This document shows positions 4,322 to 60,425 of a DNA stretch of 64,000 bases, one piece after another. The stretch is from contig LODT01000034.1 of NCBI GenBank assembly GCA_001606155.1, forward strand, positions 161,665 to 225,664, in the 5' to 3' direction. Position numbers and translations under genes: made by a program. Every line of letters begins with the position of its first letter. Position 1 is the first letter of the stretch. Origin of the DNA: Tieghemostelium lacteum (Eukaryota). The notes beneath the pieces are model-generated. The model searched no databases. It was not told the DNA's origin and saw only the letters and a program-made list of their open reading frames with translations.

Positions 4322-4464
4322 AATCAATAATAACAACAAGATATCTAAACTTCAGTAATCTAGATCTTATATTTTATTATCTTGAATTTTGGATTTACAC
4401 ACTAACTTATACTATACCACACCAAACCCCATTATATTTTTTGTGTTTTTTTATGTTTGAATTT

Positions 4465-5124: not shown

Positions 5125-5716
5125 TCTTCTAACAATATAAATATAAATTATGTACAAATAATAATAGTTCTAAATTATGATAATAATACACTTAATTGAG
5201 TGTGGTAAAATATGAGAAAAAAAACCTACATTAAACATTTTTTAAAAAAAAGTGATCGGAGTTGGGTGTTGTCACCATCTTTCACCATATTTTAAAATAA
5301 TTTTTTAAATATTGTAAAATTAGAGAATGCAAATCTTAAGAATTATTAATGGTTATAAATTTATATTGTTTGTTGATGAAGAAGATATATTTCTCACCTT
5401 AGATTTCTAGATGTATTTTAAAAATTCTATTTATATATTGTTTTCATATTTTGAAATGGAATTTATAAATTGTTTAGTCCAGAATCTGGGGGTAGTCTGA
5501 ATTCTGTTGTTCCATAAATAAAAAAAAATTCGAATTTACTCCGGAATGCAGTAACAGATTTTTAAAAAGGAATAAATATCTTGCACTACAATTTTGATGG
5601 ATATAAAAAATCAAAAAAAATATTTTGAAAATCAATTTACAAATTCACCTAACCAATAACACATCACAGTAATTTCTAATCTTTTATTATAAAAAAAATT
5701 TATAATACATATAAAC
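5125..5716. promoter_or_regulatory. Divergent AT-rich intergenic/promoter region shared by the 4465..5124(-) and 5717..6382(+) genes
   Basis: Head-to-head gene starts. A/T homopolymer runs. Confidence 0.4.
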
Positions 5717-6382: not shown

Positions 6383-6630
6383 ACATTATCTAATTTTGGA
6401 AAATCCCAATACTTGATATAGAAACTATGAAATATTTCGTCAATAAAATCCCATAGGAAATAATTTGTAAAATGTATATACTTTGAGTCTTCTTTCTATT
6501 TACATGAATTCAATAATCTTTCTTTTAAATTGAATTCAAAAATTATAATAAATTCCAGAATGCAAATGAATGTTGTAAAGTTTAAAAAATTTTTTTTTTG
6601 TGAACACATCATTTTTACAAATAATTCAAA

Positions 6631-8292
6631 ATGTTGAAGACCTTAATTAAAAGAAGTAGCTCAGTACTACTAAATAACAGTAAATCTTTGAATAACCTTA
6701 ATAAATATAATATATATAATCAAAAACTATTTTATTCAACTAGTAATAGTAACAATTATAAAAACTATCAACAAAATGAAAATAAGGAATCAGAGAGTAT
6801 ATTTAAAAGAAATAAATTTAATTTAATTGGTAGTGGTATTGCAGTTTCTTTATTGACAGCTGTAACTACAAAGATTCTATTAGAAGATGATAATAGTAAA
6901 AAAGTAGATACACAACAACAACAACCAAAGTCATTAGAGGAATCAAAGAGAGAATATAATATTGAAAAGTTTAAATATGTTATAGTAGGTGGTGGTACAG
7001 CTGCATACCATGCTGTAGATAAGATTCTAGAGAATGACAAGACTGCTGAGGTTTTGATCATTTCTCAGGAATATTCAGTACCTTATCAGAGACCACCTCT
7101 CTCAAAGAATTTGTGGGCTAGTGAAGATCCAGATGTTACCAAAAATCTACAATATACAGATTGGTCAGGTAAAAAGATGGATTTACTTTATGAACCAGAA
7201 TCTGTTTATGGTACTGATGCACTTCAATTTATTCGTACCAAAAAAGTTATTGACATTCATCTCGATCAAAAGATTATTCTGTTGAATGACGGAACTCTAA
7301 TTGAATATGAGAAATGTTTGATTGCAACTGGAGGTGAGCCAAGAAAACTTAATTTCACCTCTAAAGACCAAGAAAAGATCACAACCTACAGAACAGTTGA
7401 CGATTTCATTAAACTACACAACTTTGTACAGGAGGGCGATAAACACATTACTATTCTCGGTGGTGGATTCTTAGGTAGCGAGTTGACATGCGGTATCAAC
7501 CAAAACTTTGGAAAGAAGAAGAATATTAAAGTCACTCAGGTTTTCCCTGAAAATGGTGTATTACCACTAGTTTTCCCAGACTACCTTTCCGAATATGCAA
7601 CTGAACAAATCAAGAAATCCGGTGTAGAAGTACTCAATAAGAAACTGGTAAAAGATGTAGTAGAATCTGAAACCAACAATGGTAAATTAGTTGTTAAATT
7701 AAATGACGATAGTCACTTTGAAACTGACCATGTTGTAGTTGCAGTTGGTATCATTCCAAACAGTAACGTTGCAAAATCTACCAAATTGGAAATTGATCCT
7801 CTCAATGGTGGTATTATGGTAAATGCCGAATTACAAGCACGTTCTGATGTATACGTTGCTGGTGATGTTGCATCTTTCTATGACCATTCTATCGGTCAGA
7901 GAAGACGTATGGAACATCATGATCATGCTAAAGTCTCTGGTGAATTAGCAGGCATCAATATGAGCACAGACCAAAAAATTCCATACACATACCAACCATT
8001 CTACTGGAGTGATTTAACACCAAATATAGGTTTCGAAGCAGTTGGTAATACTGACTCTAAATTAAAAACCTTTTCAGTTTGGGAGAAATCCAATGACGAA
8101 AAAGAAACTTCAAATCAATTTACAAAAGGTAACATCTACTACCTCAATGACAAAAACGTTGTTGTAGGTGTACTATGTTTTGGAAACTATGGTAAAATGG
8201 AAACTGCCAGAAATCTAATTCAAAAGGGTAAAGCTGTATCTGATCTCAACCAACTGCAACACGCAATCTCTCTGGAAGAAGAACATCATTAA
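6631..8292 (+). CDS. aif: Apoptosis-inducing factor (AIF) homolog. Mitochondrial FAD/NAD(P)H pyridine-nucleotide-disulfide oxidoreductase with an AIF-type C-terminal domain, 553 aa
   Basis: FAD-binding GxGxxG (VIVGGGTAAYHAV) and an NADH-binding second Rossmann motif (ILGGGFLGSELTCG). The AIF-specific C-terminal segment (VVGVLCFGNYGKMETARNLIQKGKAV) is present. Basic N/S/K-rich N-terminal presequence. Confidence 0.8.
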   Translation: MLKTLIKRSSSVLLNNSKSLNNLNKYNIYNQKLFYSTSNSNNYKNYQQNENKESESIFKRNKFNLIGSGIAVSLLTAVTTKILLEDDNSKKVDTQQQQPKSLEESKREYNIEKFKYVIVGGGTAAYHAVDKILENDKTAEVLIISQEYSVPYQRPPLSKNLWASEDPDVTKNLQYTDWSGKKMDLLYEPESVYGTDALQFIRTKKVIDIHLDQKIILLNDGTLIEYEKCLIATGGEPRKLNFTSKDQEKITTYRTVDDFIKLHNFVQEGDKHITILGGGFLGSELTCGINQNFGKKKNIKVTQVFPENGVLPLVFPDYLSEYATEQIKKSGVEVLNKKLVKDVVESETNNGKLVVKLNDDSHFETDHVVVAVGIIPNSNVAKSTKLEIDPLNGGIMVNAELQARSDVYVAGDVASFYDHSIGQRRRMEHHDHAKVSGELAGINMSTDQKIPYTYQPFYWSDLTPNIGFEAVGNTDSKLKTFSVWEKSNDEKETSNQFTKGNIYYLNDKNVVVGVLCFGNYGKMETARNLIQKGKAVSDLNQLQHAISLEEEHH

Positions 8293-10364: not shown

Positions 10365-13300
10365 TTAATTCATATTTGCAATTGCAATCTTTTTGTTAAT
10401 TTGAGCAAGTGATTTCTTATCTCTATATCTCTTGTAGAAATAATAGACTGCAGAAATAGTTACAATAAGTGAAAATCCAACTACCCCAATTATAATACCA
10501 GCCAATTGACTCTTTGTTAATTTTGATGATTTAGAGGATGTTTCACAATTGTTTTTGTTGTTGTTTGGTGATGGAGTGGCAGAGGTATCTAAAAGTACAG
10601 AGAAATCAGGATCTAATAATACTGATTTCTTGAAATTTGGAATATGAATTCCAATGGTTGATCCAACAGATCCTGATGGTAGATTATTATCTTGTGAAAC
10701 TGAATTTGATATTGTTTGAATTCTGTTATCAATTATACCTCTTTTGATTAATCTACCATATAGACTATGGGAATTTACTATTAGTTTAATGTACTGTAAA
10801 TTCTGATCGTCTTGTTCCTCCAGATTGCTATTGGTTGATGAACTTCCATCTGAACATTCACTATTGTCAAATGACTCTATTGAAGCACTCATTACTAATT
10901 TTAGAGTGTTCAAATTGGAATCAAAGGAGTATGGTGAAATTTCAATTTTGTATTTAATTGATGATGGAAGCATATCAAGGAATTGATTGGCAAAGAATAT
11001 TGTTTCTTTTTGTTGGAAGTATTGAATGATAACTTTTACATTGGTGGTTAAGTTATTGTTTGTAATATTAGATTCATAAGTATATTCATTGATTCCTTTC
11101 AAATCAGATTGAGAAGTGGTGTTACTGAATATCCATTGAGAGAATTTATGAATTTTGAAATCATCTCCATTTTTGTTCAGTTCATTTAATGAGATTACTG
11201 AAAGTAAAGTTCTGAGTGAAACAGTTTGACCATCAGGTAATGTGGTGTTGAAGTTATTATCAATATCAGGATTGGTGGTGTTGATAATAATAGGAGGTGT
11301 GTTAACACCAGATAAAGAACAATCATTTCCTCCCCAATTTCCAATACAAATACATCCTGATATTGTACAACTTCCATGATCAGGACCACTACATTGAGGT
11401 GTTCCTGGACATGTTGTTGCTGGTATCAGTTCATATCCATCAGGCATTGGTGCACTGTTCGAAGGTAACTCAACAGTTTTGATTGATGAAATGTTTTTAT
11501 CCATTGGTACTTCAATGATGATAACTGTGTTGTAACCTTCAATTACTGGTACAATTTGAGTCTCACCATTTGAAAAAGTGATTTCAACATTTTCAATTGT
11601 TCCTAAATTTTTACCGGAAATAATTACTTCACCAGATGGTGTTGGGATTGAAACAGTTTCAATGACACTGTAATTTCTAGAGAGAATAGTATCAATTTTT
11701 AGATTAAACGTTCCTTGATACCCAAAGTTTAACATTACATCAGCAAATCCAGAAACAGTCCATTGTATTGGGTATCCTTGACCAAAACCATATGGAAGTG
11801 ATTCAAATAAACATGAGTAAGTAATTAACATATCTCCAGCTCCAAATATTGATGGTTCACATTGAGTTGATACATATTCAAAATATATAGCATGAAGATA
11901 GAGGGTTGGTTTATATCGTCTACTAATTGGATTAGTGTCGTCTTTTACTGTAAATGTCAGTTTGTAAGTTCTGTTGAAATTTGTGACATCAAGTGATATA
12001 TCTGAAATATGGTTGATAAAATAGGGTAACCCCACATCAGCAGGACAATTTTGGGATGAAAATATAAATATAGATAGATATGGTGTGTAATCTTCCACTA
12101 GTGTCATGAATGGGTCTATATCTGTGAATTTTGGTGGGTTGGTAACACTAACAGATTTAATGTATGACAAATCGTTATAGGTACTTTTAACACCTGCACT
12201 ATCAAAAAGCTCAATATAGGTAATGGTGAATTTTTGGGTTAGACATTGTGGTGATACAAAAAGAGGAACTTCAACCATTTGTATTTTAATATCAGGATTA
12301 CCAGAGAATTCAATGATATAAGGATTACCAATATCAATATCAGATGTTACTTTAATCAAACCATGTGAAAATCCATTTACATCATCTCTAATGGTTAATG
12401 TCCATCCAATTTGTGAACCACCTTCGATTATGTTTCCAATATTTGTTATCATTGGTGGCATTCTATCAGCATTTTCAGATGTAATTTTCAATTGACCAGT
12501 TGAAGGGAACATTAAACTATCAAATTTAACAGTTCTGTAATATACATAATAGGGTATAGTGCCAGTGAATAAATTCTTTGGAATGATGAAATCAGCTTTA
12601 TACATTTGATATTGATTATCCCAAATTCCAAAAGTAGTAACATCAATACTGTAGAATTCAATTCTGATAATTTCATCGTGATGTGCATTGGTGAAATTGA
12701 TGAATAATGTATTTGGACATTCACTTCCAGTAACATCAATTACACCACTAATTGAGAAATAAACCCTATCCAATTGAATAACTGATTGTTCATCTATTTT
12801 AAATATTAATATTATTCTTTTAATTATTAATATAATAATATGTACATACATAAATTGATAGTCATTGGATAGTTTTGAATTGGTGGCATATATAAAGGTG
12901 AAAGAGATGCAAAATTTCCAGCAATATCATAAACAAGAATAGGTTTTTCATACAGTGAATATGTGTAATATGAACTTTTGTTCCTGAAATCAACAAAAAT
13001 CTCATAAATACCATCAAAGATATCTCCACTAACTATATCACTTGGGAATATTTGTGCAAATCCATCGAAAACAATACTATAGACACCAGAACCACTGTCA
13101 GTTGCATGAACACGAATAATAATTTGTTGATATCCAATATTAATAATTTCAATACCAAGAATATTTGGTGAAAAAAGGTCTTTGGGAGTAAAGATTTTGA
13201 TTAGTTAATAATTCTTTAAATCTAAACATTGAAGAAAACATACCGCTTGCTAAAAAAGGTGGATGATAATTTGCATAGAATACCTTTCCGAGACCAGTTG

Positions 13301-16750: not shown

Positions 16751-19700
16751 TTAATTCAAAGTTGCAATCTTTTTGTTAATTTGAGCAAGTGATTTCTTAT
16801 CACTGTGTCTTTTGTAGAAATAATAGGTTGTGGATATAGTTACAACAAGTGCAAATCCAACTGAACCAACAATAATACCAGCCAATTGACTCTTTGTTAA
16901 TTTTGATGATTTAGAGGATGCTTCACAATTGTTTTTGTTGTTGTTTGGTGATGGAGTGGCAGAGGTATCTAAAAGTACAGAGAAATCAGGATCTAATAAT
17001 ACTGATTTCTTGAAATTTGGAATATGAATTCCAATGGTTGATCCAACAGATCCTGATGGTAGATTATTATCTTGTGATACTGAATTTGATATTGTTTGAA
17101 TTCTGTTGTCAATAATTCCTTTTTTGATTAATCTACCATGAAGAACATGTGAATTGAGATTTAATCTAACATAAAGTGAGTTTTGGTCTTCTTGTTCTTC
17201 CAGATTGCTATTGGTTGATGAACTTCCATCTGAACATTCACTATTGTCAAATGACTCTATTGAAGCACTCATTACTAATTTTAGAGTGTTCAAATTGGAA
17301 TCAAATGAGTATGGTGAAATTTCAATTTTGTATTTGATTGATGATGGAAGCATATCAAGGAATTGATTGGCAAAGAATATTGTTTCTTTTTGTTGGAAGT
17401 ATTGAATGATAACTTTTACATTGGTAGTTAAGTTATTGTTTGTAATGTTAGATTCATAAGTATATTCATTGATTCCTTTCAAATCAGATTGAGAAGTGGT
17501 GTTACTGAATATCCATTGAGAGAATTTATGAATTTTGAAATCATCTCCATTTTTGTTCAGTTCATTTAATGAGATTACTGAAAGTAGAGTTCTGAGTGAA
17601 ACAGTTTGACCATCAGGTAATGTGGTGTTGAAGTTATTATCAATATCAGGATTGGTGGTGTTGATAATAATAGGAGGTGTGTTAACACCAGATAAAGAGC
17701 AATCATTTCCTCCCCAATTTCCAATACAAATACATCCTGATATTGTACAACTTCCATGATCAGGACCACTACATTGAGGTGTTCCTGGACATGTTGGTGC
17801 TGGAACAAACTCATATTCATCAGGCATTGGAGCGTTATTCGATGGTAGCTCAACAGTTTTGATTGATGAAATGTTTTTATCCATTGGTACTTCAATGATG
17901 ATAACTGTGTTGTAACCTTCAATTACTGGTACAATTTGAGTCTCACCATTTGAAAAAGTGATTTCAACATTTTCAATTGTTCCCAAATTCTTTCCAGAAA
18001 TGGTTAATTTTCCAGATGAAGATGGAACTGAAACTGTTTCAATTACACTATAGTTTCTAGAGAATACAAATGGTGATGTTAAATTTGTAGTACCTTGGTA
18101 TCCAAAGTTTAACATTACATCAGCAAATCCAGAGGCTGTCCATTGTACTGGGTATCCCTGACCAAAACCATATGGAATCGATTGGAAGGTACATGTATAG
18201 GAAATGTATATATCATTAGCTCCAAATGTTGTTGGCTCACATTGGGTAGATACAGTTTCAAAGAAAATAGAGTGAAGATACATTTTTGGTTTAATTCTTC
18301 TACTTAAAGCATTTGTATTTGCAGTGTCTCTAGCTGTGAATATCAATGTATGTGATCTATTGTAGTGGGAAGTATCAACACTATTATAAGTTACAATGTT
18401 GGGAATGTAAGGTGGAAGGGTATCAGCAGTACAAGTAAGACTGCTAAGGATTTGAATAGATAGAGAAAGGGTTGCACTATTAATGATTGAAATGAAAGGA
18501 CTTATATCTTTGAATACTGGTGGTTCAGAAACACTTGCTGATTTAATGAATGACAAATCGTTATAAGTACTTTTAACACCTGCACTATCAAAGAGTTCAA
18601 TATAGGTAATGGTGAATATCTGGGTTAAGCATTGTGGTGATACAATTAATGGTGCTTGAATGGTTTGTGTAATGGAATCAGGTATACCTGTCAATTCAAT
18701 GATATAAGGATTACCAATATCTAGATCAGATGTTACTTTAATCAAACCATGTGAAAATCCATTAGGTCCATCTTCAATTGTTAATGTCCATCCAATTTGT
18801 GAACCACCAGCTATTGTGTTATCAATATTTGTTATCATTGGTGGCATTCTATCAGCATTATCAGATGTAATTTTCAATTGACCAGTTGAAGGGAACATTA
18901 AACTATCAAATTTAACAGTTCTGTAATATACATAATAGGGTATAGTGCCAGTGAATAAATTCTTTGGAATGATGAAATCAGCTTTATACATTTGATATTG
19001 ATTATCCCAAATTCCAAAAGTAGTAACATCAATACTGTAGAATTCAATTCTGATAATTTCATCGTGATGTGCATTGGTGAAATTGATGAATAATGTATTT
19101 GGACATTCAATTCCAGTAACATCAATTACACCACTGATTGAGAAATAAACCCTATCCAACTGAATAACTGATTGTTCATCTATTTTAAATTTCAATATTA
19201 ATATATTAATGGATGTAAACTAATTAACATATATACATACATTTTGAATTGATAGTCATTGGATAGTTTTGAATTGGTGGAATTATGTTTGGTGATATTG
19301 AGGCACTATTACCAGCCATATCATAGACTATTGCAAGTTGATCATAAATTGAAGATGTAAAATATGAACTTTTGTTTCTGAAATCAACAAACTTTTCATA
19401 AATACCATCTAATTTATTACCACTGGCTAAATCACTTGGGAAAAGTTGTGCAAAACCATCGAAAACAATACTGTAGACTCCTGAGTAATCATCAGTTGCA
19501 TGAATACGAATTATAATTTGTTGATATCCAATATTTATAAATTCAATACCCTCAATACTTGGAGCAATTATATCTATAGAAATGTTAATTATTAATCTAT
19601 AAAAATATATTATTTTAATACATACCATTAAGTGTGAATGTTGGTGGTTGATAATTTGTATAAAATGTTTTTCCAAGACCTGTAACTTTAAATCCCAGAT

Positions 19701-21569: not shown

Positions 21570-24500
21570 TTATTTTCTCTCATTACTGTGTGTATTTGAT
21601 CTTTTCTTTTCAGTGTTTACAGAGATACGATGAGATTCATCTAAAAGTGATGGAGATGAAAGTGAGGTTGGTGATGTTCCAATGGGATTGAGAGCATGTG
21701 AAGGTACTGCTGAGAGTGTAGGTGACAATGGTGAATTGTTATTATTATTACTATTAGATGAACTATTTAAAACTTGTAAACTTTTGGATAACAAATCACT
21801 TTCTTTTTCTTTGAATCTAACTGCTAAAACTTTACATTTGTTCAATTCTTTCTTTACATCTTCTCTTTGTTTTTCAATTGGTAATAGATCTTGGTTTGGT
21901 ACAAAGTCAAGTAAAAGTTCTTCTAAACTTATATAAGCCTGCCACAGTTGCAATAAATGTTGATAGAGGTTGCATACTGCATAACTGAATCTAGTCTCTG
22001 CAGTTTGAATCTGTAATTCATCAGAGCTTATTCCATTTTCAAAGAGTTTAGCTCTGGTATTGTTAGTTAGAGTTCTCTGTTCAGTGTAAATATTGAGATA
22101 GTTTGTGAAATTTGCAATACCCTTCTCACGTTGTTCCAAAAATGGTGATTTTACATTATGTGTCTGAGTTGGTGAATTGGCTTTAAATGTACTGGTATTA
22201 GGTTGTTGTTGGTGTGCTATATAGTTCTCCAAGTGTTTCTTGTATCTCTCTGCAAGGGATTGAGTATTGTGCACTTCCGTTGCAGATCTCACAAAATTTG
22301 GTTTCTCAAAGATATCAACAGTCAAAGCTGAGACCTCTGATGCAATAGATATAATGAGCGGCAGACACTGATTGAACAAAGTCTTGTATTCAATGGTTAT
22401 GTGTTGAATTAACTGATAGGCTGCAGTAAAGACATCAAATAGATCCTTCTCAGAAGTGAATTCAATCTGCTCCGAACAACTATTCCACCAACTTTTTGCG
22501 GCTGTTACATTGTAACTTAGAGTTGTCAATGCACTGTTGGTATGGAACTGCATGTTTCTAGATAACGTTGGAGAAGATGACTGAACTGATTTTCTATTCT
22601 GCCCACCTGATAAGGTAGTAGGAGATGTGGGCTGAGTTGATAGCCCTGCTAGAAGGTTTCCACTACTTCCTGATCCTGCACCTAGAGATATAGGTGTAGG
22701 GTTAGTGCCTTGGCTTGATATGGATGATGTAGAACCACTGGGAGACTTCAACAAATCCGCATTGGAAACTGCATGTGCGAGTGGATTGCTATTCAACGAA
22801 TTAGATCTTGAACTGGGGTTAGAAGGTATATCATCATTCATGTCACCTAAACCCTCCAAAATATCATTGAATCCTTGGAAATGAGGGAAATTGTGGAACT
22901 CTAAATTGGGCTCAAAGTCATTGGATCTAAGTGTATCAGTATTGTCATTATCAATATCAGAAGATGGGTTGTGACCTATAGAGGATGTAGTTGCATCATT
23001 ATCAGAAATGAAATCATCGATATTGGAATCATAAATCTTTTGTGGTTCATCTTGAGTGCTAAAGAAAGTCTCGAATATCTGAGTTGTACTGTACATTGAT
23101 TTAGCCAATTGTGAACTGGTAGCTGATTTAGCACAACTGTCAAGAACCTTCAATAGGTAACTAGCAGATAACAATGTACCTCTGTCCACCTTATTTGTGA
23201 ATTTCTTTACAATTCCAGTAGATCTACTAGGTTTCATGCTGGCATTCTCAATTGCCACAAGATTGGTTGGTGAATTTCCACTGGTAATCTCAATGAATCT
23301 TATAGCTTGACTGACGTTATAGTGTGGTGATTTGTGATCATTAATCAGTTGAGTTACAGTATCATACCAATCAGCAACACGAGAAGATCTGGTATCAGCT
23401 GGATTGACACCACCTTTAACTAGAGCTGTTAGGATCTTAAGTATAGGATACTGGTATTCTGAAGGTCCAAACTCCAACATATTGAAAAGTAAACTGAATA
23501 CCAATGTACTATTCTTGATGACAGATTCACATAGTGGAGGTGACAAATCTTGTAAAAACTGATCAAATTGACAATAGTAGACTTCGTGGCTGTAGTTATT
23601 GAAAATAGTTGAAAGTCTAGTTAACCCCATATTCTCAGCTAGTTCGGATATGTGTTCAGCAGTCTCTATGCTAAGGTAAGTAGGCTCACCAATAGTTATA
23701 CACAGGTAAGGTAACAATGCAACTAGATTTGTTATAAATCTAACTGGATCAGGATGGAAAAGTTCATCACAAGGTTGTAAAGTGATTTTGGATAAGAACT
23801 CAACTGAGATTTGTGCGGTGTTAGGTGACATTAAACCATTGATTATCAGTGGTTGCAACCCACGGAAATTCTCCCATTCCTTAGGTAACGATGCTAAGAA
23901 GACGTTTTGAACAGCTCTATCTGAGAAATTTACAATGTCCAGTAGTAAAGAGAGAAGTTTGATTGCACCGATAAAGTGTTGTTCAAATTCAGTGTGTAGT
24001 ATTGCCATGGTACCCCAGAATATCTGTGGAAATAGAATGAGTTTAGAAGGATGAATACACTTGACCATCACTTGAAGTGTCTCTAGAATCTCAGAGACTA
24101 GAATGGCATTCTCCGGTGAGAGATTCTGTAGGTATTTACCAAGACTCTGCATAACTTCAGTCAGAGAATCTATGGTAGATGTTGGTTCTAAACCTCTGAT
24201 TATCTGATACGATCTCATTGCCAGTCTTTGGTTAGGTGAGTTTATAGCATAGTACAAGGCAGTGGATCCCCAATGTTCTTTAAGTTCTGGACTACCATCA
24301 CTAAGTACAAATACCACACGTTTGGAGAGTGTAACTACATATTTAGGATTAGAAATATCCTTTTTGTTAGCAGCCATTGCTAGCTCTTTCAAAGATCCAC
24401 TAGAGGCATTTTCGTCAATTCTATAGACAGATGGTAATAAAGAGTCAACTAGTTGAATGGCATCATCGTATATGGGGTTGTCAATAGTACCACCTTCTTG

Positions 24501-27500
24501 TAACTGGAATTTCTTTATAACTAAACATCGGATGAGATTCAATAATAGCAATCTACAATGTTCATGAACATGTTGATGATTGTAATATAATCCCAAGAAT
24601 ATCAACTGTAATAACGATGGTAAATGTATACGAAACTCTTCACCAATTTCAAAAGCAACTTCACTGAGGAATATAAGTGGTAACTGTGATCTATTAAGTG
24701 ACGACTTCAAAGCAGGATTAGCATTATGAAGTTCAGTTGCAATTTGAAATTCATGTGAGATACTTGAAATGGTATTATAATGTACATATTCATGACCTCC
24801 TCCTCCACTACCAGCACCACTTGGTGGGCCCATCTGTGGGTTCAACTGATTTTGTGGACTACTTTGATTACTATTAGGCAATCTATTAAATTTAATTGAA
24901 TTTTGAGCTTTACTCAGAGTCTTGATATCACCATAATCAATGAGAGTCTGTTGAGTTTCAGTGGTTGTAGAACTAATTTCATTTACCAGACAATTAATGA
25001 GTTTCTGTGGAGATGATCTTCCAAGGAATATACAAATTCTCTTAAACACTGGAATGAGATCATGGTTTCTAGTTCTCTCTACAATTCCCAAGATAAACTC
25101 AATAATCACACCGATGTTCTCTTCATTTCTTCCGAGAATTCTCCAAATGTCTTCAATGAGATGACTGTGATTATCAGAGTATTTTCTACTGATTAAAATC
25201 AGTCCTTGTAATACTGGTTCCAGCAGAGGATGTTTAGGAGCCTTGTTAGATAGATGCATTTGTTTGACCCAAGGTTTAACATAGTTCAACATTTGTTTTT
25301 GGTAATCTGGTTGAATGACTTCTAATCTATAGACAATGTCCAGGAATATCTCGTAACATAACTCAGGGTTCTCCAAAGACAGTTTCTCACTGAGTTGGTA
25401 TTGACTATTGATATAAGTCTCTGGAATATCAGATCCAATAGCACTAGGATAATAGGTGTCATTGTAAGCCTCTGGTGGATTGGATTTAGTGGACTTGATC
25501 AAACTTAGCAATTGTAAAGACTGTTGTCTTACAGATGATAATCTAGAGCCGGTATTGAGAATGATGAGGTTTGTCATGATGGAATCTGAATACTCAAATT
25601 TAAGTATCTGGTCTTGAGAGAGTTCAACCAATGATAAAAAGTATCCATTTGCAACGTGGAAGTTGGTAGAATAACACTGGTTGACACAATGGTAGATTAG
25701 CTCCTGATGAGTTAGATTATGTTTGAGGAAGTTCTCTAAAGCCAGTCTAGTCACAGATCTCATTTTGGTACGTAACTGGAACATGTTGTTAATCCACTGG
25801 AAAATGACTCCAGAAGGGTCTCTAAAGGTATCAATAAAGTAAGGCCCTAGTAAAGTAGCACTGACAGCATGAGTGGCAACACTGGCTAGTTGTGAGGCAT
25901 GTTCTTGAGTTCTATATTCAATGTCTTTTCTCTTTTGAGCTTCTTTCTCTTCTTGTTGTGAAAATGAGATAAATCTTCGAATGGTACCATCTTCTCTCAG
26001 GAATTCTTCAGATTCCGACCACTTACTGAAACATTTAAACAGTTCACGTCTATGTATTTTATCTAGAAATTCATGGCCACCCAAATACAGCTGTTGGACA
26101 ATTCTATGTATCATGGCACAGAAATTGAATCTAATGTAATGTAGACCATCCCAGAGATACTCATTCGACTCAAAAGTCTGGAGGAATGATAAAATCTCTT
26201 GAATGAATTCAAAGTAGCTCTTTTTGAGCATTTCTCTTCGAACTAGTTCACCATGTCTAAGAGACTCCAAACAATGTCTACGAATGCCTATAACAGATTT
26301 AATGATATCCGATTTCTTTTTGGATGTCTTCTTGTTGTGTAACTCATGTTCAAAAGGTTTCAAAACATCAAAGAGAACCTCGAGAACATTTGGGTTGGTC
26401 TTCTCCAATGCCATCAATGCAGATTCTGCAAAGAATTTATCCATACTCTTGAGATAGGGTATAATGAGATTGAATAGCTCTCTAGCGGAAGAGGGTGCTA
26501 ACATCTCCAGTAAATCACTCTGTGAAGATGACCCACCACTAAGAGCTGGAGGGTACCCCAGCTGAGCTTGTTTAACTAATCTTGATTTAACATCCACACT
26601 AGTACTATCAGGAATCTGTATAGTTATACAAGAGAAAACTATATAGTTCCTCCACAGTACCCATAAAGCCTCTTGTTCTGGTGATATTGATGACTGATTC
26701 TTTACAGATTCGTCTGGTTGAATAGGCTTTATACGCAGCAGTATAAGTTCACTAGCCTTATGTATAGACATTGGACATAGCTCACAAGCAGTCTTGGTAA
26801 TATCAGCCAAACAAGCTGTCCATAGAATCTGGTCTTCCCTAGACTCACTTTCAAGTATTCTTTCAAAATCTTGAGGTGATCTCTGACGTTTATAAAACTT
26901 ATTAGTATCAGGATTCTGGTTTTGCTGTATCTGTTGTTGACCAGGTTGATTTCCTCCATTAGGCATCTGCTGTTGCTGTTGTTGTTGTTGAGATGATAAA
27001 AAGAAGTTTTGTGCACGGTATAGATAATCATTACCATTCTCGTCTATAATGTCCTTGATATATGTTGAAATCTCGATATCCTCATCACCAGCCTGCACTC
27101 TAGCCTGAATAAACGACTCGCAAACAGTTCGAATAGACTCCAAAATCGATAGACATATTTTTCTTACACGTCCAGAAGATGAACATAAAAACACAATAGC
27201 AACAGGTTCGACTTGAGCACGATCTGGTGGATTGACATCCGATGTGTCCTGTTTGAATTTAGGTTCATCTGCGTCCTCTATAGAAGATAGTGAAAATTTT
27301 CCATTTTTTGATCGAGCCCAGCTATCTAGGAGTTCACGAAGTTTCTCAAGAATCACACTGATGAGAGCAGGTTGTTTGTCGTGTAGAGTTGTGAGAACAT
27401 TTCTTCCAAGACCATTGATGATCTGTGACCGGATATCAGGACGACTTGCCATCAACTGGGTCAATACTATACTTGATTTCTCACAAACCCCTCTGTCTAA

Positions 27501-29773
27501 GTGAATGAGTTGTTTAGACAGCATGGTTACCAAATCATGCACAGGAATTCTCAGAGGGAATGCAATGGGGATTACAGATATCGCAATCTTGAGAAGATCC
27601 AAACAGCTGTTACCAGGTGGACGTGCTTTCTCTAAAAGTTCATTCAAGGATTTTGTCTGATTACTTGTTAACATGCTTCCAAAAGTTGGATCGAGAGCCA
27701 GTAAGATGGAACTCAGGAAATTACTAATGTTCTTGAGGTAGGGTTCAATCAGTGATGTTGATGTCACTTTCTTGATATTCAACGTTCCATAACGTTGTCT
27801 TCGAACTGCACGTGCCTTGTTAGAGCTGTTTACTACAGGATCGGGTATAGGGGATGTTGAAGGACTTTGTGATGGAGAATGAGTAAAAGACAGCATTTTA
27901 GGAGTCAGAGGATTGGTTCCAGCCTGATCAATAAGCATCACAGCTCTCAACCCTATAATCATTCTCTCTGGGTTAGTTATATACTCTTTAGGCTCACCAC
28001 CTCTAAGTAACTCAAAAATGATCTTTTCAAAGGCAAAATCAATTCTAGTATTAGCAATGACACATATTATATCAACAAATATATCTAAACTATCTGAAGC
28101 TGATAAAGTCAATCTCTTACTGTGTCCAGGTGGAAACACATAGCTAACCAATTGATGCAATCTTTCGTATACCTCTTCAGGCTGTTCAGAATACTTTGTC
28201 AAATAACACTCCAACAAATATTGCACAGATTCCAAACAATAAGGTCTAATTGTCTTCTCCTTATTCTTTAAGAAACTCTCCATCAAACCCCAATAATACT
28301 TTAAAAATGTTTCTTTATCACTACAACACAATAGTATAGACATTAATGGATATGATGTCTATTCATTAAAAATCAGAGTTAATAATAATCCAAGATTTTT
28401 TATCATTGTAGTAGCTCTACATACAATCATATTTCTAGTCTTTTTCGTCTTTTTTGATATAATGTCATAGAGTTCTCTAATAGTTCCTAACCAATCTGTA
28501 TAGTTTAATTCTGGTTTAAATTTCTCTTCAGTTAATGGTCTTAAAATAGATGCTAAAATCTCAGCAGTTGCCCTTCTAAGATCACCTTTAATTCTAGGAT
28601 TTTTAAATAATTCCAAATAACTAGCTAAAAATTCATGTGATTGTTTTAGTTTAGAGACTGATGATATCTATATTAAATGAAATGTAAATAATCAAAGTGT
28701 GGATATGATTGGGAATGAGTGGTGATAACCTTACTTTAACTTTAAAATATCTTATACCTTGTAGAATTGGAAATGTTTTTGATTTTAAATTTGAAGAGGA
28801 GAAACATAATTGAAATTCTTTAAAGAAACGTGATGACAAACTTTTAAGTCTGTATTTTGAGAGTTGTCCCAAGATACTAGCACACAGATCAGGAATGATC
28901 AGTGGTGAACTATTTCCAAGACGTCTCTCTAATTTAAAATTATCAAAACAAATTGATTCAATCTGATTGGCAATGGTATCATTGAGATTCTCTTTTGTTA
29001 GTGATCCCAATATGCTTAATAATGATGTACAAAGTATATATTCTACAATTAATTTATATCTTTCATCTACCATTGGTGTTATATCCCTTTTAGTATTTAT
29101 ATCGTCCCTATAAGATTTATATTAAATTTAGATATATAAAAAAAAATGTTAGATATATCTTAGATTTAGATCGGAACTGATGTGTTATTAATACAAACAT
29201 TTTTGGTTTTGATATTGATTTTGCAGGTATAACATGTTGAGAAGATCTCCATTGAAGTAGAGCTGCTGCTATTAGGTTTAGAAAGTATTTTGAGACTTCA
29301 GTTAGACCTTCAATGACTTGATGAAATGTTTTTGATTCAGGTCCTTCAAAGAAATCCTCTATTCTAATCTTATCATCACGAATGAAAATATCAATTTTCA
29401 CTTTTGTATGATCTTTAAAGTCACCTAGTAGTTTAAACATTATATGATCAGCAGGTAGAACCTTTACATTCATACCTAAATTACTGCTACTACTATGACC
29501 ACTATTATGTATCTGTTGTTGTGATTGTACTTGATGATGATGATGATGAAGAAGTGTTGATGCAGAACTAGTTGTACTACTACTGCCACTAGATACAACT
29601 GAGACACTGGATACATTACTAGATATCAAATTTGTACTTCCACCACCTCCAACCTGTGTACTAGATACAGCAGTACTACTCATACTGCTACTGTTGATTG
29701 GATTGTTGGAAGAAGAGTCCATTGATGATGAATCACCACTTCCATTACTTCCAGTTCTTCCTCTAACCATCAT
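21570..29773 (-). CDS. Furry (FRY/Tao3/Mor2) homolog, a giant HEAT/ARM-repeat cell-morphogenesis scaffold of about 2659 aa. Exons 29773..29199, 29107..28735, 28667..28425, 28358..21570
   Basis: Furry-domain matches include ..FHQVIEGLTEVSKYFLNLIAAALLQWR, TSYPLMSILLCCSDKE (cf. ALYPLVTCLLCVSQKQ), TRIDFAFEKIIFELL, NPERMIIGLRA, YYQLSEKLSLENPELCYEIF and HVHEHCRLLLLNLI. Introns 2 and 3 (67 and 66 nt) have GTAAGG/GTATGT donors. Intron 1 (91 nt) requires a phase-2 donor, with a GTTTGT candidate at 29198, and is less certain. Confidence 0.75.
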
Positions 29774-30706: not shown

Positions 30707-31240
30707 ATGACATCAGTACCAAAAGCAAATTATTATACATCCGATGGATTATTGGCTTTGGAAACTCCATATAAAGGTCCATTGACATCTATTGAGTTAT
30801 CTCAATATAGAATATTTTATCGTGATGTTTTAGATGCTAATCTTACACAATCTATCGAACTTAATGATTTAAAGGCATTTTTTACTAAAAAAGGATGTAC
30901 AAAGACTGACCAACAAATTCAAGATTTTATAAACCAAGTAGACACTGCTAAAAAGACTAGTATATGTTATACACATTTCCTACAAGCTGTGGTTGATTTT
31001 AAAAATAATTTGAGTACTCAACCACTCACTTGGAAATATATATTAAATGGTGTATATATTGATAGAGTATCTGCAATCAATCAATTGGCAGTTACCATTC
31101 GTCAACAATACGATTTATTAGCAACACAATGTTCAACATCAACAGCTGCAAATCAAAATCAAATTCAACTAGATGCCGCCAATTTTGCATCCCAATATGA
31201 ACAACTTACAGGCATAAAATTACCTGCAATTCAATGCTAA
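30707..31240 (+). CDS. Hypothetical 177-aa protein with two degenerate EF-hand-like helix-loop-helix units
   Basis: Clean ORF with ATG 30707 in an A-rich context. LDANLTQSIELNDLKAFF and VDTAKKTSICYTHFLQAV are loop-like but non-canonical. Confidence 0.45.
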   Translation: MTSVPKANYYTSDGLLALETPYKGPLTSIELSQYRIFYRDVLDANLTQSIELNDLKAFFTKKGCTKTDQQIQDFINQVDTAKKTSICYTHFLQAVVDFKNNLSTQPLTWKYILNGVYIDRVSAINQLAVTIRQQYDLLATQCSTSTAANQNQIQLDAANFASQYEQLTGIKLPAIQC

Positions 31241-31377
31241 TATTATATATAAACCATTTCAAAGAATATCCATTTATTTGTAAATAAATTAATTTATACA
31301 TTTTATAATAAAATACCAAATCTGAATAATTACTTTTAATTGAAATATATACTTTTATTTTAAAAAAAAGTGTTGAT

Positions 31378-32625
31378 TTAGAAACCATATAATAAACATT
31401 TTAGTAAATATATACCCAATATGAATAATAAAAATAGATAAAATGGATTGAAAATGTACAATTCCAAAGGCTCAAATGCAAAGACTGCTTTTTGTCTTTT
31501 GATTTCAGTGACTTGGATAGGTGGGATGAATTCTCTTGGTCCATAGACAGTATAACGAGTACCGGCTTTACGTTTTATACTTCTCATTGCATTACCAATA
31601 CCTGGAACCATTTCTTCAAAATCCTCATTAACAGCACAATAGATCGAATCTTCAGGCGAGAGTACACGAATCTCTTCAATTCTACTGACAGATTCCATAG
31701 GTTTAGTAAAGAATTTGGCAGGTCCTTTAATAAGCTTCTTATCTCCAATTTGAGAGACACCTTGTTCATTCATGGGATTGGATAATATACAAAACTCACG
31801 ATGTGTGAGTACGGTAAGTGGAACCACTTTCTCAATGGTTACACTTGGTGGTGGGATATACAATGTAGTATCCTCATCGGTTAGTAACCACATTTCATTC
31901 TTTTTTCTCTCTACACCATTATCATTAAACTTTTGATTGGCTTTGATAATGACTGCAGTTTTAAAATCTAAAACTACTGGATCAACAGTTTCCAGTAACT
32001 TCTCATAGGCATCTAAAATATATGGACCCTCTTTGTCCATTAACCATTCATCACCAGTTTTTCTGTTAACTTTAAACACCTTGTCAACAAACTCATTCTT
32101 TGCCTTCAATTTCAGTGCTTGATGTGGTTTTACAATGATTGAACTTCTTTTTTCAATAATCTTCTCTTCTATTCTTGGTACATAGGTGGCAGGACCTGAA
32201 AACAACCATTCATCACCTGCCTTTCTCTCGACTTTGTGTAAATCACAATAGAAATCAAAGAGAGCTTTAATGACAAATGCTTCGCCATTGACCAGTATCT
32301 CTAATTGCTTGAAATCACCAAGCATAGTTTCACCAGGATACAGTGGAAATGGATCCTGTTCAAATCTAATCTCTTTTTGTCCTCTCTTTAATTTAGCTTG
32401 ATTATAATCATCCATTACAATCTTTCCAGTCTTATCTTTAATCACTGGATTTTCAATAATTGCATAAAAGTTTCTTGGTATCATGTGCATCTTTGTTGGT
32501 TGTAATGTAATCTTTTCATGTTCTTTTGGTAAAAATGTTGAAGGACCTGTAATAGTTCTACAAATATTGGTATTGGTATCCAAAATGTGAATATAATGAT
32601 ATGGTGGTATTTTGGTTAATGACAT
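31378..32625 (-). CDS. Major vault protein (MVP)-like truncated paralog of 415 aa. It covers the N-terminal MVP repeat domains (about repeats 1-7) only and ends in a hydrophobic tail, with no shoulder, cap-helix or cap-ring
   Basis: MSLTKIPPYHYIHILDTNTN..GP matches the MVP N-terminus (IPPYHYIHVLD). Repeated AGDEWL/TGDEWL MVP-repeat motifs. ATG at 32625, where the track's 32637 is TTG. The ORF ends ..ELYIFNPFYLFLLFILGIYLLKCLLYGF*. No further MVP-like coding downstream. Confidence 0.7.
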   Translation of the reverse strand: MSLTKIPPYHYIHILDTNTNICRTITGPSTFLPKEHEKITLQPTKMHMIPRNFYAIIENPVIKDKTGKIVMDDYNQAKLKRGQKEIRFEQDPFPLYPGETMLGDFKQLEILVNGEAFVIKALFDFYCDLHKVERKAGDEWLFSGPATYVPRIEEKIIEKRSSIIVKPHQALKLKAKNEFVDKVFKVNRKTGDEWLMDKEGPYILDAYEKLLETVDPVVLDFKTAVIIKANQKFNDNGVERKKNEMWLLTDEDTTLYIPPPSVTIEKVVPLTVLTHREFCILSNPMNEQGVSQIGDKKLIKGPAKFFTKPMESVSRIEEIRVLSPEDSIYCAVNEDFEEMVPGIGNAMRSIKRKAGTRYTVYGPREFIPPIQVTEIKRQKAVFAFEPLELYIFNPFYLFLLFILGIYLLKCLLYGF

Positions 32626-33173: not shown

Positions 33174-33590
33174 ATGGGAGCAGGAGTAGAAGAACCAGTA
33201 TCATCAGTTTATGATAACAATAATAACAATACCTTTGGATATCCAATCCATGACAAAGGACTAAAAGAAATTCGTATTTTGAAAAAAGTAGGATTTCTTA
33301 AACCATTTGATCCAATTTGTCCAACAGATATCCATCAAATTATTTCTCCACATGAATATGAAAAATTTATCTATTCAATTAATGCCACTATGAATGGTGG
33401 TATTTGGACACTGTTGTGTTGTATGGCCATGTCAATAGGCTCTATTCCATTCCTATTTGTTTCCACTATTGTCTCTATGGCTGCACTTATCGGGTGTCTT
33501 GTTACTGTAGTTTTAGTAATGATGCTAATGTGTTTTATTCATTTATTTTTCAGACGTCCAAAAAAGGGTAATTTTCTATTAAATATTTAA
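33174..33590 (+). CDS. Small membrane protein of 138 aa with an N-terminal MGxG (possible myristoylation) and a C-terminal two-helix hairpin with a Cys cluster
   Basis: ORF with ATG 33174. Hydrophobic segments WTLLCCMAMSIGSIPFLFV and MAALIGCLVTVVLVMMLMCFIHLFF. Confidence 0.45.
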   Translation: MGAGVEEPVSSVYDNNNNNTFGYPIHDKGLKEIRILKKVGFLKPFDPICPTDIHQIISPHEYEKFIYSINATMNGGIWTLLCCMAMSIGSIPFLFVSTIVSMAALIGCLVTVVLVMMLMCFIHLFFRRPKKGNFLLNI

Positions 33591-34120
33591 CCACAGCACA
33601 ATAATATTTATATTAATATAATATCATTCATAAACAGGATACAATAATTTATGATAAAGTTATAGCTTTTAACAATTCACTAAGTTCAAAATTCAAACCA
33701 ATTCAATTCTTTATAATTCACATTGATAGAAAAAACTTTGATATTCTCGTCAGATACAGAACTGATGGTGAACCATTTGTTTATGAAAACCAATTAAATA
33801 CATCAAGAGTATTTTTAGTATAAGCTCTCCACATTAATCCAAACTCTCTACACTCTTTCATATTTTAGTAATTGTCGACCAATCTTTTAATCTAAGATAT
33901 AAATTTCAACAATAAATTATCTTGAAATTATTGTATAATCTATATTTATAATAAAGTAGCAACATTAACAATTAATTGAAATCGCTTTTTTTCATTTTAA
34001 TAATAAATATGTTGACTCTCTGAAAGTTAAACCATTTGACTATGAAAATCAAAAGTATTTATGTGAATAATGTGCTATTATTTTTAATAAAACTATCTTA
34101 ACAAACTGTTAGTGATAATA

Positions 34121-34477
34121 ATGAATATCTATGAAGAAGATTTACAATATAATCAATTTAATCTAGATAAAGAAATTGAAATTATTAGTGATAGGGATAT
34201 TGGATTTTCTAAAGATGCACCTGAGGAATTAAAGCATTTAATTTCACCCAAAGATTATAGAAAACTAATAAAATCATTAGAAGATATCGACAATATTTGG
34301 ATACTAATGATTCTATTGAATTTCTTTTTTATATCCTTTATCATTGCTGGTGTTATACTATTACTAGAGAAATTCTTTGTTGTCTCTACAGTTGTTGGTG
34401 GTATTGGTGTATTTGGTTTCATTTTATGTTGGTTACTAGTGTGGCATATTGAAGATAAAATAGTATGTATATTATAA
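34121..34477 (+). CDS. Paralog of the 33174..33590 product (118 aa), with the same ISPxxYxKxI motif followed by a 2-TM hairpin
   Basis: ISPKDYRKLIKSLEDI compared with ISPHEYEKFIYSINAT. ATG at 34121, where the track start 34112 is GTG. Confidence 0.4.
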   Translation: MNIYEEDLQYNQFNLDKEIEIISDRDIGFSKDAPEELKHLISPKDYRKLIKSLEDIDNIWILMILLNFFFISFIIAGVILLLEKFFVVSTVVGGIGVFGFILCWLLVWHIEDKIVCIL

Positions 34478-55423: not shown

Positions 55424-56671
55424 TTATTGAGTACTGGTACTAGTTGTAGTTGTAGTTGTATTATTATTGTTATTTGTTTCTTCTAAAGGTTTAACAAACT
55501 TTCCTCTAACCCATACTCTGTACATTGAAATCATTCTTTTTCTATTTCTCAGTTCTCTAGTTTCGTAGGAAGAAAACTCAGTTATGAAACCAACCTTCTC
55601 AAAGGCAGCTTGAAGAATTTCTTTGGTGAAAAAGTAGGTTCTAGTACCATCAGAACGAAGATAAAAATGTTCGTCTAGTTTTCTTCCTTGTTTAGCTAGA
55701 AATCTCAATTGAGTGAGATCATAAAGTCCATAGTCTCTAACATAGACAACTCCACCAGGTTTCAAAGATTTGTAGATGGTTGATAACACATGATCGAATC
55801 TCTCTGGACTGATAGCAGACAATACAAATATCATCAATGTGATATCAATACTGTTATCTTTAATAAACATTGGTAGTTGTTGAGTAGCAATATCACAAAC
55901 AAACGCAGTTAATCTATCTTCATTGTAATTTGGGTGAGATTTCACTAGTTTCACAGCATTTGGTGAGAAATCAAAAGCGTAAAAATACTTTTCAGGGTTA
56001 ATCTTTAGTATTGGGAATACTGCATTTCCAGCACCACATCCAACCTCCATAACAGTTCCTTTACATTCATCCTTTTTCAACTCTGTAACAAATTTCCACC
56101 ATTTATCTTTTTCCTCTACAATTTCATCTTTCTCTTCTTTTTCTCTATTTTCAACTTCTTCATTTTCATCATTATTATTTTTGTTGTTATTGTTATTGTT
56201 GCTGTTGTTTGATTGCTGTACCTGAGGATTCTCTTTTTTATCAGAAAAGTATATCCTAGTTTGATCTCTATTGAGTGACATTGGATTCAGTTCAGGAAAC
56301 TCCAAATGCAAATAAGTTCTATCTTTAAAGAACTTATCTTTATTGTTTTTGTAAAATACATCCCAATGATTCATTGCATTCTGTTCATATTTATTCTTTT
56401 CTTCACTACTGATTACTTGTGTTTCTTTCTCTAAAATGTATTTTGCAGTTTGTTCCTTTACAAAATCCCAGTCAACATTATCCCAAGAGGTTTCATTTGA
56501 TATCTCTTGATCAATAACCGATTTCTCAGTTGTTGCACCTGAGTATTTTGTATTCATATCAACCCATTTCTTTCCTTCTAGATCATTGTTATTCCAATGT
56601 TCTTTTTTTTTCTTTCCATCCAAATCATGTCCATTCCATGTTTTATCGTTTTTTTCGTTACTTGTCGACAT
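55424..56671 (-). CDS. METTL2/METTL6/Trm140-type tRNA m3C methyltransferase (class I SAM MTase), 415 aa
   Basis: N-terminal family motif HWDVFYKNNKDKFFKDRTYLHLEFPEL. SAM motif I VMEVGCGAGNAVFPIL. ATG at 56671, where the track start 56734 is GTG. Confidence 0.8.
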   Translation of the reverse strand: MSTSNEKNDKTWNGHDLDGKKKKEHWNNNDLEGKKWVDMNTKYSGATTEKSVIDQEISNETSWDNVDWDFVKEQTAKYILEKETQVISSEEKNKYEQNAMNHWDVFYKNNKDKFFKDRTYLHLEFPELNPMSLNRDQTRIYFSDKKENPQVQQSNNSNNNNNNKNNNDENEEVENREKEEKDEIVEEKDKWWKFVTELKKDECKGTVMEVGCGAGNAVFPILKINPEKYFYAFDFSPNAVKLVKSHPNYNEDRLTAFVCDIATQQLPMFIKDNSIDITLMIFVLSAISPERFDHVLSTIYKSLKPGGVVYVRDYGLYDLTQLRFLAKQGRKLDEHFYLRSDGTRTYFFTKEILQAAFEKVGFITEFSSYETRELRNRKRMISMYRVWVRGKFVKPLEETNNNNNTTTTTTSTSTQ

Positions 56672-56752
56672 CTTATAAGTGTGCTTTTTGGACTTTTTTT
56701 GAAAAACAAAATTACAAAAAACAATTATAAACACATTTCAATTTGTATGATT
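56672..56752. promoter_or_regulatory. 81-bp divergent spacer between the methyltransferase ATG (56671, minus) and the first tandem F-box/LRR-like gene ATG (56753, plus)
   Basis: ATG positions determined by translation. The spacer is A-rich. Confidence 0.35.
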
Positions 56753-60389: not shown

Positions 60390-60425
60390 ATCATTTTTTC
60401 AATTTTGGTGGTGAAACAACATGTA

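Follow-up and report, generated by a model that had tools for sequence, protein, structure and literature searches.

A 64,000-nucleotide stretch of contig LODT01000034.1 (positions 161,665 to 225,664 of the forward strand; hereafter the window) from the group-3 social amoeba Tieghemostelium lacteum contains the gene DLAC_07332, whose 415-residue product consists of repeats R1-R7 from major vault protein (MVP) followed by a single hydrophobic helix at the extreme C terminus. The gene very probably specifies a functional tail-anchored (TA) MVP-repeat protein, one of a family of such proteins in Amoebozoa that can be told apart from full-length MVP by the repeats alone. Few eukaryotic ribonucleoprotein particles are larger or more abundant than vaults, whose function has stayed obscure for about 40 years. 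The combined explanation toward which we lean, with some reserve, is that of a functional TA protein that is probably located in the endoplasmic reticulum (ER) and possibly docks vaults. It is already known that the gene exists, by annotation, and that its product is short, by tabulation; a literature search that fell short of all journals turned up no account of the family, of its tail anchor, of where it occurs in Amoebozoa, of the selection acting on it or of the -EL pattern at its C termini.

MVP repeats without shoulder or cap

The gene occupies positions 31378-32625 of the minus strand as one unbroken open reading frame (ORF), from an ATG at 32625 to a TAA at 31380-31378, and its 415-residue translation, beginning MSLTKIPPYHYIHILD, matches NCBI DLAC_07332 of Tieghemostelium (Dictyostelium) lacteum from end to end with 100% identity. 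Pfam detects Vault (PF01505) in four stretches (E 5e-42) as well as Vault_2 (PF17794, E 1e-22), and in a phmmer search of the Protein Data Bank (PDB) residues 2-389 pair with 6-388 of MVP (E 4e-92). A preliminary description of this DNA had noted an MVP-like start and AGDEWL and TGDEWL repeat cores, and the sequence and both searches agree; its outline of a repeats-only MVP paralog of about 415 residues with a hydrophobic end likewise matches the ORF, the Pfam hits, the hydropathy profile and the helix in our structural model, a correspondence well outside the reach of chance. That model, computed with AlphaFold from a 29-sequence family alignment (mean predicted local distance difference test score 92.4), is all-beta to residue 391 and ends in one helix at residues 394-414. 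Its top Foldseek match among solved structures is the murine MVP R1-R7 fragment 3gng (E 1.7e-35, template-modeling (TM) score 0.76), and a fold search of viral proteins returned no relative at E <= 0.001. Modeled in this way, residues 1-391 show the fold of MVP R1-R7, a predicted elongated all-beta rod.

Homology to MVP stops at residues 389-391, in the first strand of R8. A Pfam scan of DLAC_07332 found neither the R8-R9 families (Vault_3, PF17795; Vault_4, PF17796) nor the SPFH-like shoulder (PF11978); PF17795 and PF17796 are present in the full-length matches of our searches and absent from the tail-bearing ones. A test for SPFH (band-7) gave no Pfam match to SPFH in this protein, and the model is all-beta with one terminal helix. 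When eight long MVPs, extending through the shoulder and partway along the cap helix, were searched by tblastn against the whole window, only 31396-32625 matched, with the matches to MVP repeats stopping at 31453, and no shoulder or cap-helix sequence was detected elsewhere; as a search for missing exons, the same comparison yielded nothing outside the ORF. The preliminary description had stated that no shoulder or cap sequence lies downstream and that a plus-strand gene takes its place, and the tblastn result and a convergent EF-hand gene (30707-31240, plus strand) confirm this. The stops of the two genes are separated by 137 bp, and their 3' untranslated regions (UTRs) must therefore be very short or overlapping.

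A hydrophobic C-terminal helix

In Kyte-Doolittle windows of 19 residues the protein reaches its best value, 2.26, at residue 397, against a best of 1.12 elsewhere (before residue 370), and its first 20 residues, with a mean hydropathy of -0.33, do not resemble a signal peptide. The sequence ends ...KCLLYGF, one residue beyond the end of the helix (414 of 415). A single hydrophobic helix at the C terminus, inside the last 30-40 residues or so in which TA proteins have theirs, together with the lack of a signal peptide or another hydrophobic segment, shows the architecture of a TA protein. A hydrophobic segment is found at the same position in all 29 aligned relatives (29/29) while its sequence is not conserved, and in the tails of 55 non-redundant relatives the uncharged stretch shows medians of 19 residues for length and 2.57 for hydropathy; hydrophobicity and position kept without sequence conservation are the usual pattern of a membrane anchor. 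A novel membrane-anchored MVP-repeat protein, one of two alternatives raised in the preliminary description, thus gains support from a conserved tail architecture.

Beyond the helix, a K or R follows directly in 22 of 37 short-ended members (in T. lacteum K409, then CLLYGF). Members with at least nine residues past the helix end in -EL in 10 of 18 cases, versus 1 of 211 other proteins in the set; the endings are KKEL, VKEL, QNEL, NTEL, KPEL, MSEL, HVEL, APEL, EAEL and DVEL, the last closing a 28-residue extension past the helix in the Heterostelium album model (P0008), which may be a gene-model artefact or a real lineage-specific change. A C-terminal -EL is meaningful only in the lumen of the ER/Golgi, where the KDEL receptor acts, and the enrichment supports, suggestively rather than as proof, a topology with the N terminus in the cytosol and the C terminus in the lumen, together with ER residence for much of the family.

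It might be argued instead that the protein is soluble and that the tail serves oligomerization or incorporation into vaults, as in a minor shell subunit or an assembly regulator. MVP paralogs do co-assemble in one shell in Dictyostelium and trypanosomes (PMC12547018), and at R9, a position of lateral contact, 94% of the family have a basic residue. Such a role is difficult to reconcile with an uncharged C-terminal segment of about 19 residues and hydropathy of about 2.6, in which hydrophobicity and not sequence is conserved, the signature of a transmembrane anchor, or with a C-terminal -EL enrichment that makes sense only if the C terminus lies in the ER lumen, and we regard it as improbable.

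Base composition raises a different concern, namely that DLAC_07332 is an artefact of gene prediction, a full-length MVP with missed 3' exons whose tail is a translated intron or 3' UTR: A+T-rich noncoding DNA yields hydrophobic-looking peptides rich in F, L, I and Y, and GC content falls to about 0.2 across the tail-coding part of the gene. Against this stand the absence of shoulder or cap sequence from the 64 kb window, the convergent gene 137 bp past the stop, and the complete transcripts of other amoebae that end at the same place with V, A, G-rich helices; a hydrophobic tail is thus present also in relatives where V, A and G predominate over F, L, I and Y. Tail and repeats share an exon in T. 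lacteum, D. discoideum, D. citrinum, D. dimigraforme and D. purpureum, and the introns of the Dictyostelium orthologs lie only near the 5' end. Flanking intergenic DNA contains 0.086 stop codons per codon, so that in any one species a run of 27 codons would escape a stop with a probability of about 9%; despite this frequency the tail is open and of similar length in every species examined, and among close species its frame and length are conserved with a ratio of nonsynonymous to synonymous substitution (dN/dS) below 0.3. A GTATAT once considered as a possible splice donor is unnecessary given a tail contiguous with the repeats, and the accompanying remark that downstream exons would have no room holds true. 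We give the artefact explanation next to no weight.

Conservation and selection

Eight other dictyostelids, namely D. discoideum AX4 (DDB_G0282033 / Q54T29), D. citrinum, D. firmibasis, D. dimigraforme, D. purpureum, Acytostelium subglobosum, Heterostelium album and Synstelium polycarpum, have orthologs that are 52-54% identical to DLAC_07332 and 415-437 residues long, apart from one 463-residue model with an N-terminal fusion, and all have a hydrophobic C terminus. The D. citrinum match (420 residues, 54% identical) falls in the same 90% cluster as DDB_G0282033, which is, on sequence comparison, the direct ortholog of DLAC_07332. Beyond Dictyostelia the same architecture occurs at 35-42% identity in at least 11 further genera (Pelomyxa, Mastigella, Stereomyxa, Flabellula, Nolandella, Paramoeba, Pyxidicula, Gocevia, Luapelamoeba, Cavostelium and Pellita). 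Every tail-bearing member with a named organism is amoebozoan, and many further members come from metagenome or transcriptome contigs. Complete ORFs are present in Trinity/MMETSP transcriptomes of Flabellula, Nolandella, Paramoeba, Mastigella, Pyxidicula, Gocevia, Luapelamoeba, Cavostelium, Pellita and Stereomyxa, evidence that the gene is expressed in those amoebae.

Coding sequences (CDSs) were rebuilt for three close Dictyostelium species (D. discoideum, D. citrinum and D. dimigraforme) and compared by the Nei-Gojobori method, giving a whole-gene dN/dS of 0.06-0.11 at dS 0.46-0.58 and, for the last 35 codons alone, 0.17-0.29. The orthologs of these three group-4 species have a single intron of 58-102 nt after codon 47, and that of D. 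purpureum has two small 5' introns and a last exon that encodes 370 of 424 residues including the tail; as the T. lacteum gene has none, introns were gained or lost near the 5' end within Dictyostelia. Taken together, these comparisons show a gene that is to all appearances functional and under strong purifying selection across Dictyostelia, Archamoebae, Tubulinea, Discosea and Cavosteliida.

The other alternative in the preliminary description, a dead partial duplicate of a full-length vault gene, had in its favor that the C-terminal half of MVP is missing and not encoded downstream. It is refuted by a length and architecture conserved across Amoebozoa (an intact ORF here, the same design in the eight other dictyostelids and in at least 11 other amoebozoan genera), by transcription in many species and by dN/dS: where relaxed selection had been proposed as a check, the Dictyostelium orthologs display strong purifying selection. 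As detailed below, R1-R7 also place the protein in a distinct family and not as a copy of local full-length genes, and the chance that it is a pseudogene appears vanishingly small.

Two gene models among the relatives deserve separate mention. In that of Synstelium polycarpum (P0004) a fused CUE domain (PF02845) replaces the first R1 strand, again either a gene-model artefact or a real lineage-specific change. A 98-kb metagenome contig (ERZ929229 k127_17828) carries at 6001-7251 a tail-bearing short MVP gene that ends in KKEL and adjoins a gene for an FNIP-repeat protein; its called N terminus (...FFFFLLPSKKK...) resembles a translated intron, which makes an uncultured amoebozoan the probable source.

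A lineage separate from full-length MVP

A profile search over 1.8 billion cluster representatives returned 2555 matches, and the sequences compared included 45 near-complete R1-R7 proteins with tails and 34 full-length proteins of at least 780 residues. Trees and hidden Markov models (HMMs) were built on 395 columns of the repeat region only, the tail being excluded. One split of the neighbor-joining (NJ) tree holds 45/45 tail-bearing proteins together with 2/57 full-length ones, and dictyostelids group within the tail-bearing clade as vertical descent would predict. In place of the NJ bootstrap we relied on classification with five-fold cross-validated HMMs of R1-R7, which assigned 36/37 tail-bearing proteins correctly (median +64 bits) and 55/56 full-length proteins correctly (median -30 bits). 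DLAC_07332 itself is about 36-42% identical both to full-length MVPs and to its non-dictyostelid tail-bearing relatives. By the evidence of its repeats it is a member of an old, separate lineage and not a recent duplicate of the full-length vault genes. Since tail-bearing and full-length proteins are separable on the repeats, anchor and truncation arose once, before the sampled Amoebozoa radiated, and not by repeated decay of full-length genes.

A profile search with the family alignment recovered no further named tail-bearing members, because full-length MVPs score equally on the repeats. A query with an 843-residue protein (P0136), for which a dictyostelid origin had been guessed without support, gave no dictyostelid among the 120 matches listed, the sole organism-named match being a mollusc. 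A 696-residue protein (P0141), one of the two that fell among the tail-bearing proteins in the NJ split and were counted as full-length, was rejected as a full-length MVP: it has no shoulder, its sequence past residue 400 is by eye unlike MVP, and it looks like a short MVP fused to a downstream gene in the gene model.

There is also a second kind of short MVP on metagenome contigs (P0171/P0274, P0176, P0142, P0139, P0150 and P0197) that ends at the same R7/R8 junction, where the hydrophobic helix gives way to a short tail of basic or aromatic-basic character; ...FFFWKKSRKSR and ...AGKKGAQVRKAKN are examples. P0274, from the same 90% cluster as P0171, conserves its tail, and 11 of 12 sequences of this kind classify with the tail-anchored family on the repeat region. 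They could represent soluble variants or peripherally bound ones, and a number could simply have been cut short by contig ends or introns. The matches further include full-length or near-full-length MVP homologs named 'colicin uptake protein' (P0079, P0084, P0102, P0404, P0422 and P0435) in cyanobacteria (Moorena, Xenococcaceae), an Anaerolineae metagenome-assembled genome and Candidatus Parabeggiatoa. Cyanobacterial MVP homologs have been noted before (Daly et al. 2013); those in Anaerolineae and Candidatus Parabeggiatoa may extend the bacterial distribution of MVP.

The R1 waist and a possible connection to vaults

The two halves of a vault meet at a waist formed by the N termini (R1) of MVP, and the lateral contacts within each 39-mer half come from the shoulder and above all from the cap helix; what secures the waist is a hydrophobic patch (F6, I7, I36) together with a polar triad (N22, Q38, N40) and a salt bridge (D39:R42) (PMC13347060). 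We mapped these human residues onto the family alignment (Table 1; human I36 corresponds to L32 of T. lacteum) and found them kept at least as strongly in tail-bearing proteins as in full-length MVPs. The same is true of the N-terminal motif IPPxHYxHVLD.

A protein that has no shoulder or cap helix and yet keeps the waist residues of R1 is most likely a membrane-bound partner of vaults, and the following arrangement can be envisaged. The helix would be inserted post-translationally, by GET/TRC40 or the EMC, and the MVP rod would stand in the cytosol, its R7 end next to the membrane surface and R1 pointing away; such an anchored rod might be some 15-20 nm long, a rough estimate from vault dimensions. 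The membrane would most likely be that of the ER or the nuclear envelope, and there the rods could tether or dock vaults or open half-vaults through R1-R1 contacts. Whether the protein sits in the ER at all we consider an evenly balanced question, and the docking of vaults is put forward tentatively. A more specific version, in which R1-R7 rings or patches on the ER or nuclear envelope pair by the R1 waist with canonical half-vaults, or with each other across two membranes, strikes us as rather unlikely. Were it true, there would be membrane-docked 'vaults' with a lipid bilayer in place of one cap; the vault lumen would be physically connected to a membrane surface, and vaults would gain a concrete role open to genetic tests in a tractable organism.

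Several observations weigh against a family of ER-anchored vault partners. The exact split between tail-bearing and full-length proteins was recovered in 0 of 100 NJ bootstrap replicates, owing to rogue long-branch sequences and short deep branches, although every replicate contains a split of 40-45 tail-bearing proteins with only 1-6 full-length ones. The full-length MVP genes of T. lacteum itself were not retrieved with the P0136 query. Most -EL endings of the family do not follow the classic [KRHQSA]-[DENQ]-E-L pattern, the T. lacteum protein has no -EL ending, and its short tail, in which a 15-residue uncharged core is followed by one lysine, would fit other organelles just as well. Recombinant mammalian R1-R7 reportedly does not self-assemble, according to a crystal study of 2009, and the conservation of R1 may reflect the stability of the fold rather than an interface.

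The main rival keeps the membrane anchor and drops the vault: a real TA protein whose repeats act as a rigid spacer or a ligand-binding rod, or build their own lattice, on the ER or on a different organelle such as the peroxisome or the mitochondrial outer membrane. A role of this sort, which we judge possible without favoring it, would fit repeats that have diverged into their own family (about 36-42% identical to full-length MVPs), the loss of every domain known to drive vault assembly, and the short basic tail of dictyostelid members (K/R after the helix, 22/37 of the short-tailed), which is compatible with targeting to sites other than the ER. To our knowledge it would also be the first case of MVP repeats used outside the vault shell. 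It leaves unexplained why tail-bearing proteins preserve the waist residues of R1 and the IPPxHYxHVLD motif no less well than full-length MVPs do, and the -EL endings of many members point to the ER. Furthermore, D. discoideum and Mastigamoeba, the two named species in which both forms are documented, possess full-length as well as short MVPs (PMC12547018, Table S3).

Under either reading the purifying selection across Amoebozoa implies that the family must serve some useful role. Tail-bearing MVPs constitute a natural separation-of-function variant, in which the barrel-wall repeats and the contact face between half-vaults are kept, the parts that close the shell are lost and an anchor is gained. 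Knockouts of mvpA and mvpB exist in D. discoideum, the organism that also encodes DDB_G0282033, and any action of vaults or MVP repeats at membranes is therefore directly testable there; the family could thus offer a genetic handle on the relation between vaults and membranes.

Sequence features and neighboring genes

The features of the gene are collected in Table 1. A scan for bacterial-type promoters and terminators, a kind of scan unsuited to a eukaryotic gene, detected no promoter above background.

Table 1. Features of DLAC_07332 and its 3' flank; positions are those of the window
Feature	Position	Strand	Basis
Complete intronless CDS, 415 codons plus TAA stop at 31378-31380	31378..32625	-	ORF listing; identity to DLAC_07332
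Predicted cytosolic domain, residues 1-391: MVP repeats R1-R7 and first beta-strand of would-be R8 (LYI, 389-391)	31453..32625	-	Pfam, PDB phmmer, AlphaFold, Foldseek, tblastn
R1 N-terminal segment, residues 1-39, with waist equivalents L3, K5, N18, L32, E35, H36, K38	32509..32625	-	Alignment mapping
Human I7 = T. lacteum L3: hydrophobic in ~99% of tail-bearing; full-length V60 I25 L10 A2			
Human R9 (lateral contact) = T. lacteum K5: basic in 94% of tail-bearing vs 78% of full-length			
Human N22 = T. lacteum N18: N in 94% of tail-bearing vs 78% of full-length			
Human D39 = T. lacteum E35: acidic in 87% of tail-bearing vs 69% of full-length			
Human R42 = T. lacteum K38: basic in 60% of tail-bearing vs 46% of full-length			
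Vault_2 (PF17794) match, residues 46-104	32314..32490	-	Pfam
AGDEWL repeat core, residues 136-141	32203..32220	-	Sequence; G137, E139, W140 invariant or nearly so in 29-sequence alignment
TGDEWL repeat core, residues 190-195	32041..32058	-	Sequence; G191 invariant, W194 nearly so in 29-sequence alignment
Predicted transmembrane helix, residues 394-414 (PFYLFLLFILGIYLLKCLLYG); uncharged core 394-408, K409 near far end	31384..31446	-	AlphaFold helix; sole hydrophobic segment; position kept in 29 relatives
Very short C-terminal end K409-F415, predicted on lumenal/far side, no -EL	31381..31401	-	Sequence; family tail comparison
Possible polyadenylation signal AATAAA, 19-24 nt past stop	31354..31359	-	Sequence reading; weak evidence in DNA of ~80% A+T

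The convergent neighbor at 30707-31240 encodes 177 residues with a weak match to an EF-hand pair or to AIF-1-like proteins, below the Pfam cut-offs. Just upstream of the short MVP gene, the ORFs at 33174-33590 and 34112-34477 (both plus strand; 138 and 121 residues) each have a hydrophobic C-terminal half and no Pfam match; they are paralogous (31% identity over 78 residues, E 4e-7) and look like a tandem pair of small membrane proteins.

Other genes of the window, in keeping with its social-amoeba origin, encode a Mor2/Furry homolog, an AIF-like oxidoreductase, a kinesin and two ComC-like proteins. The very large Mor2/PAG1/Furry-type cell-morphogenesis gene (21570-29773, minus strand) is spread over several ORFs (2257, 85, 140 and 218 residues), a layout that implies short introns near its 5' end. 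The ComC-like genes (DUF7035, DUF7034, DUF7949, ComC_SSD; 10365-12851 and 16751-19195, both minus strand) lie 12-21 kb from the short MVP gene. A ComC-like gene (3013-7336 of its locus) also lies directly upstream of the D. purpureum ortholog, possibly by coincidence; apart from this neighbor no synteny is evident between the T. lacteum locus and the Dictyostelium loci. Finally, three head-to-tail paralogs of about 600 residues without a Pfam match (56597-58492, 58608-60389 and 60405-62201, all plus strand; 49% and 33% identity, E 3e-177 and 7e-87) form a tandemly expanded family.

Comparison with known systems

Members of the family have appeared in the literature as 'MVPshort (truncated MVP homolog)' in Table S3 of PMC12547018 (J Biol Chem 2025), which lists XP_640422.1/DDB_G0282033 and Mastigamoeba balamuthi MBAL_000468 and MBAL_014565. 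That study tabulates their coverage (6-414 of TbMVP1) and counts two 'full-length' paralogs; the word 'membrane' occurs zero times in its main text, and the entries carry no comment on a tail anchor, conservation or function. The same table also holds N-terminal-only short forms of Diplonema, for example DP_019274. Two papers on MVP evolution treat only MVP-alpha and MVP-beta in Amoebozoa, and the literature searched, which did not cover all journals, makes no mention of the gene or protein identifiers, of an mvpC or of a tail- or membrane-anchored MVP. UniProt names these proteins automatically 'Major vault protein'.

With the major vault protein proper (mammalian MVP; Dictyostelium MvpA/MvpB), which forms the 78-copy vault shell, DLAC_07332 shares R1-R7 (about 36% identity), the fold, the IPPYHYIHVLD motif and the waist residues; it differs in lacking R8-R9 as well as the SPFH-like shoulder and both cap helix and cap ring, with a C-terminal transmembrane helix in their stead, and probably also in its location within the cell. 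Nearly the same domain content is found in the recombinant murine R1-R7 fragment (PDB 3GF5, 3GNF, 3GNG), the best structural match (TM 0.76), but whereas that fragment is a laboratory truncation, DLAC_07332 is a natural cut at the same place with a membrane anchor added.

A single C-terminal transmembrane segment is also typical of TA or type II ER proteins with a lumenal H/KDEL retrieval signal, such as yeast Sec20p. There is no sequence relationship to these proteins, and the -EL of many relatives is mostly non-canonical and is not found in the T. lacteum protein. The SPFH membrane cages (flotillin, HflK/C, stomatin, prohibitin), cited as vault-like (PMC13347060), are the known instance of a vault-related architecture on a membrane. 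They share with MVP the shoulder (SPFH) and the cap-helix bundle, precisely the parts missing in DLAC_07332, while the repeats of DLAC_07332 are absent from SPFH proteins; having kept the repeats without the SPFH parts, it is therefore not a member of the SPFH family.

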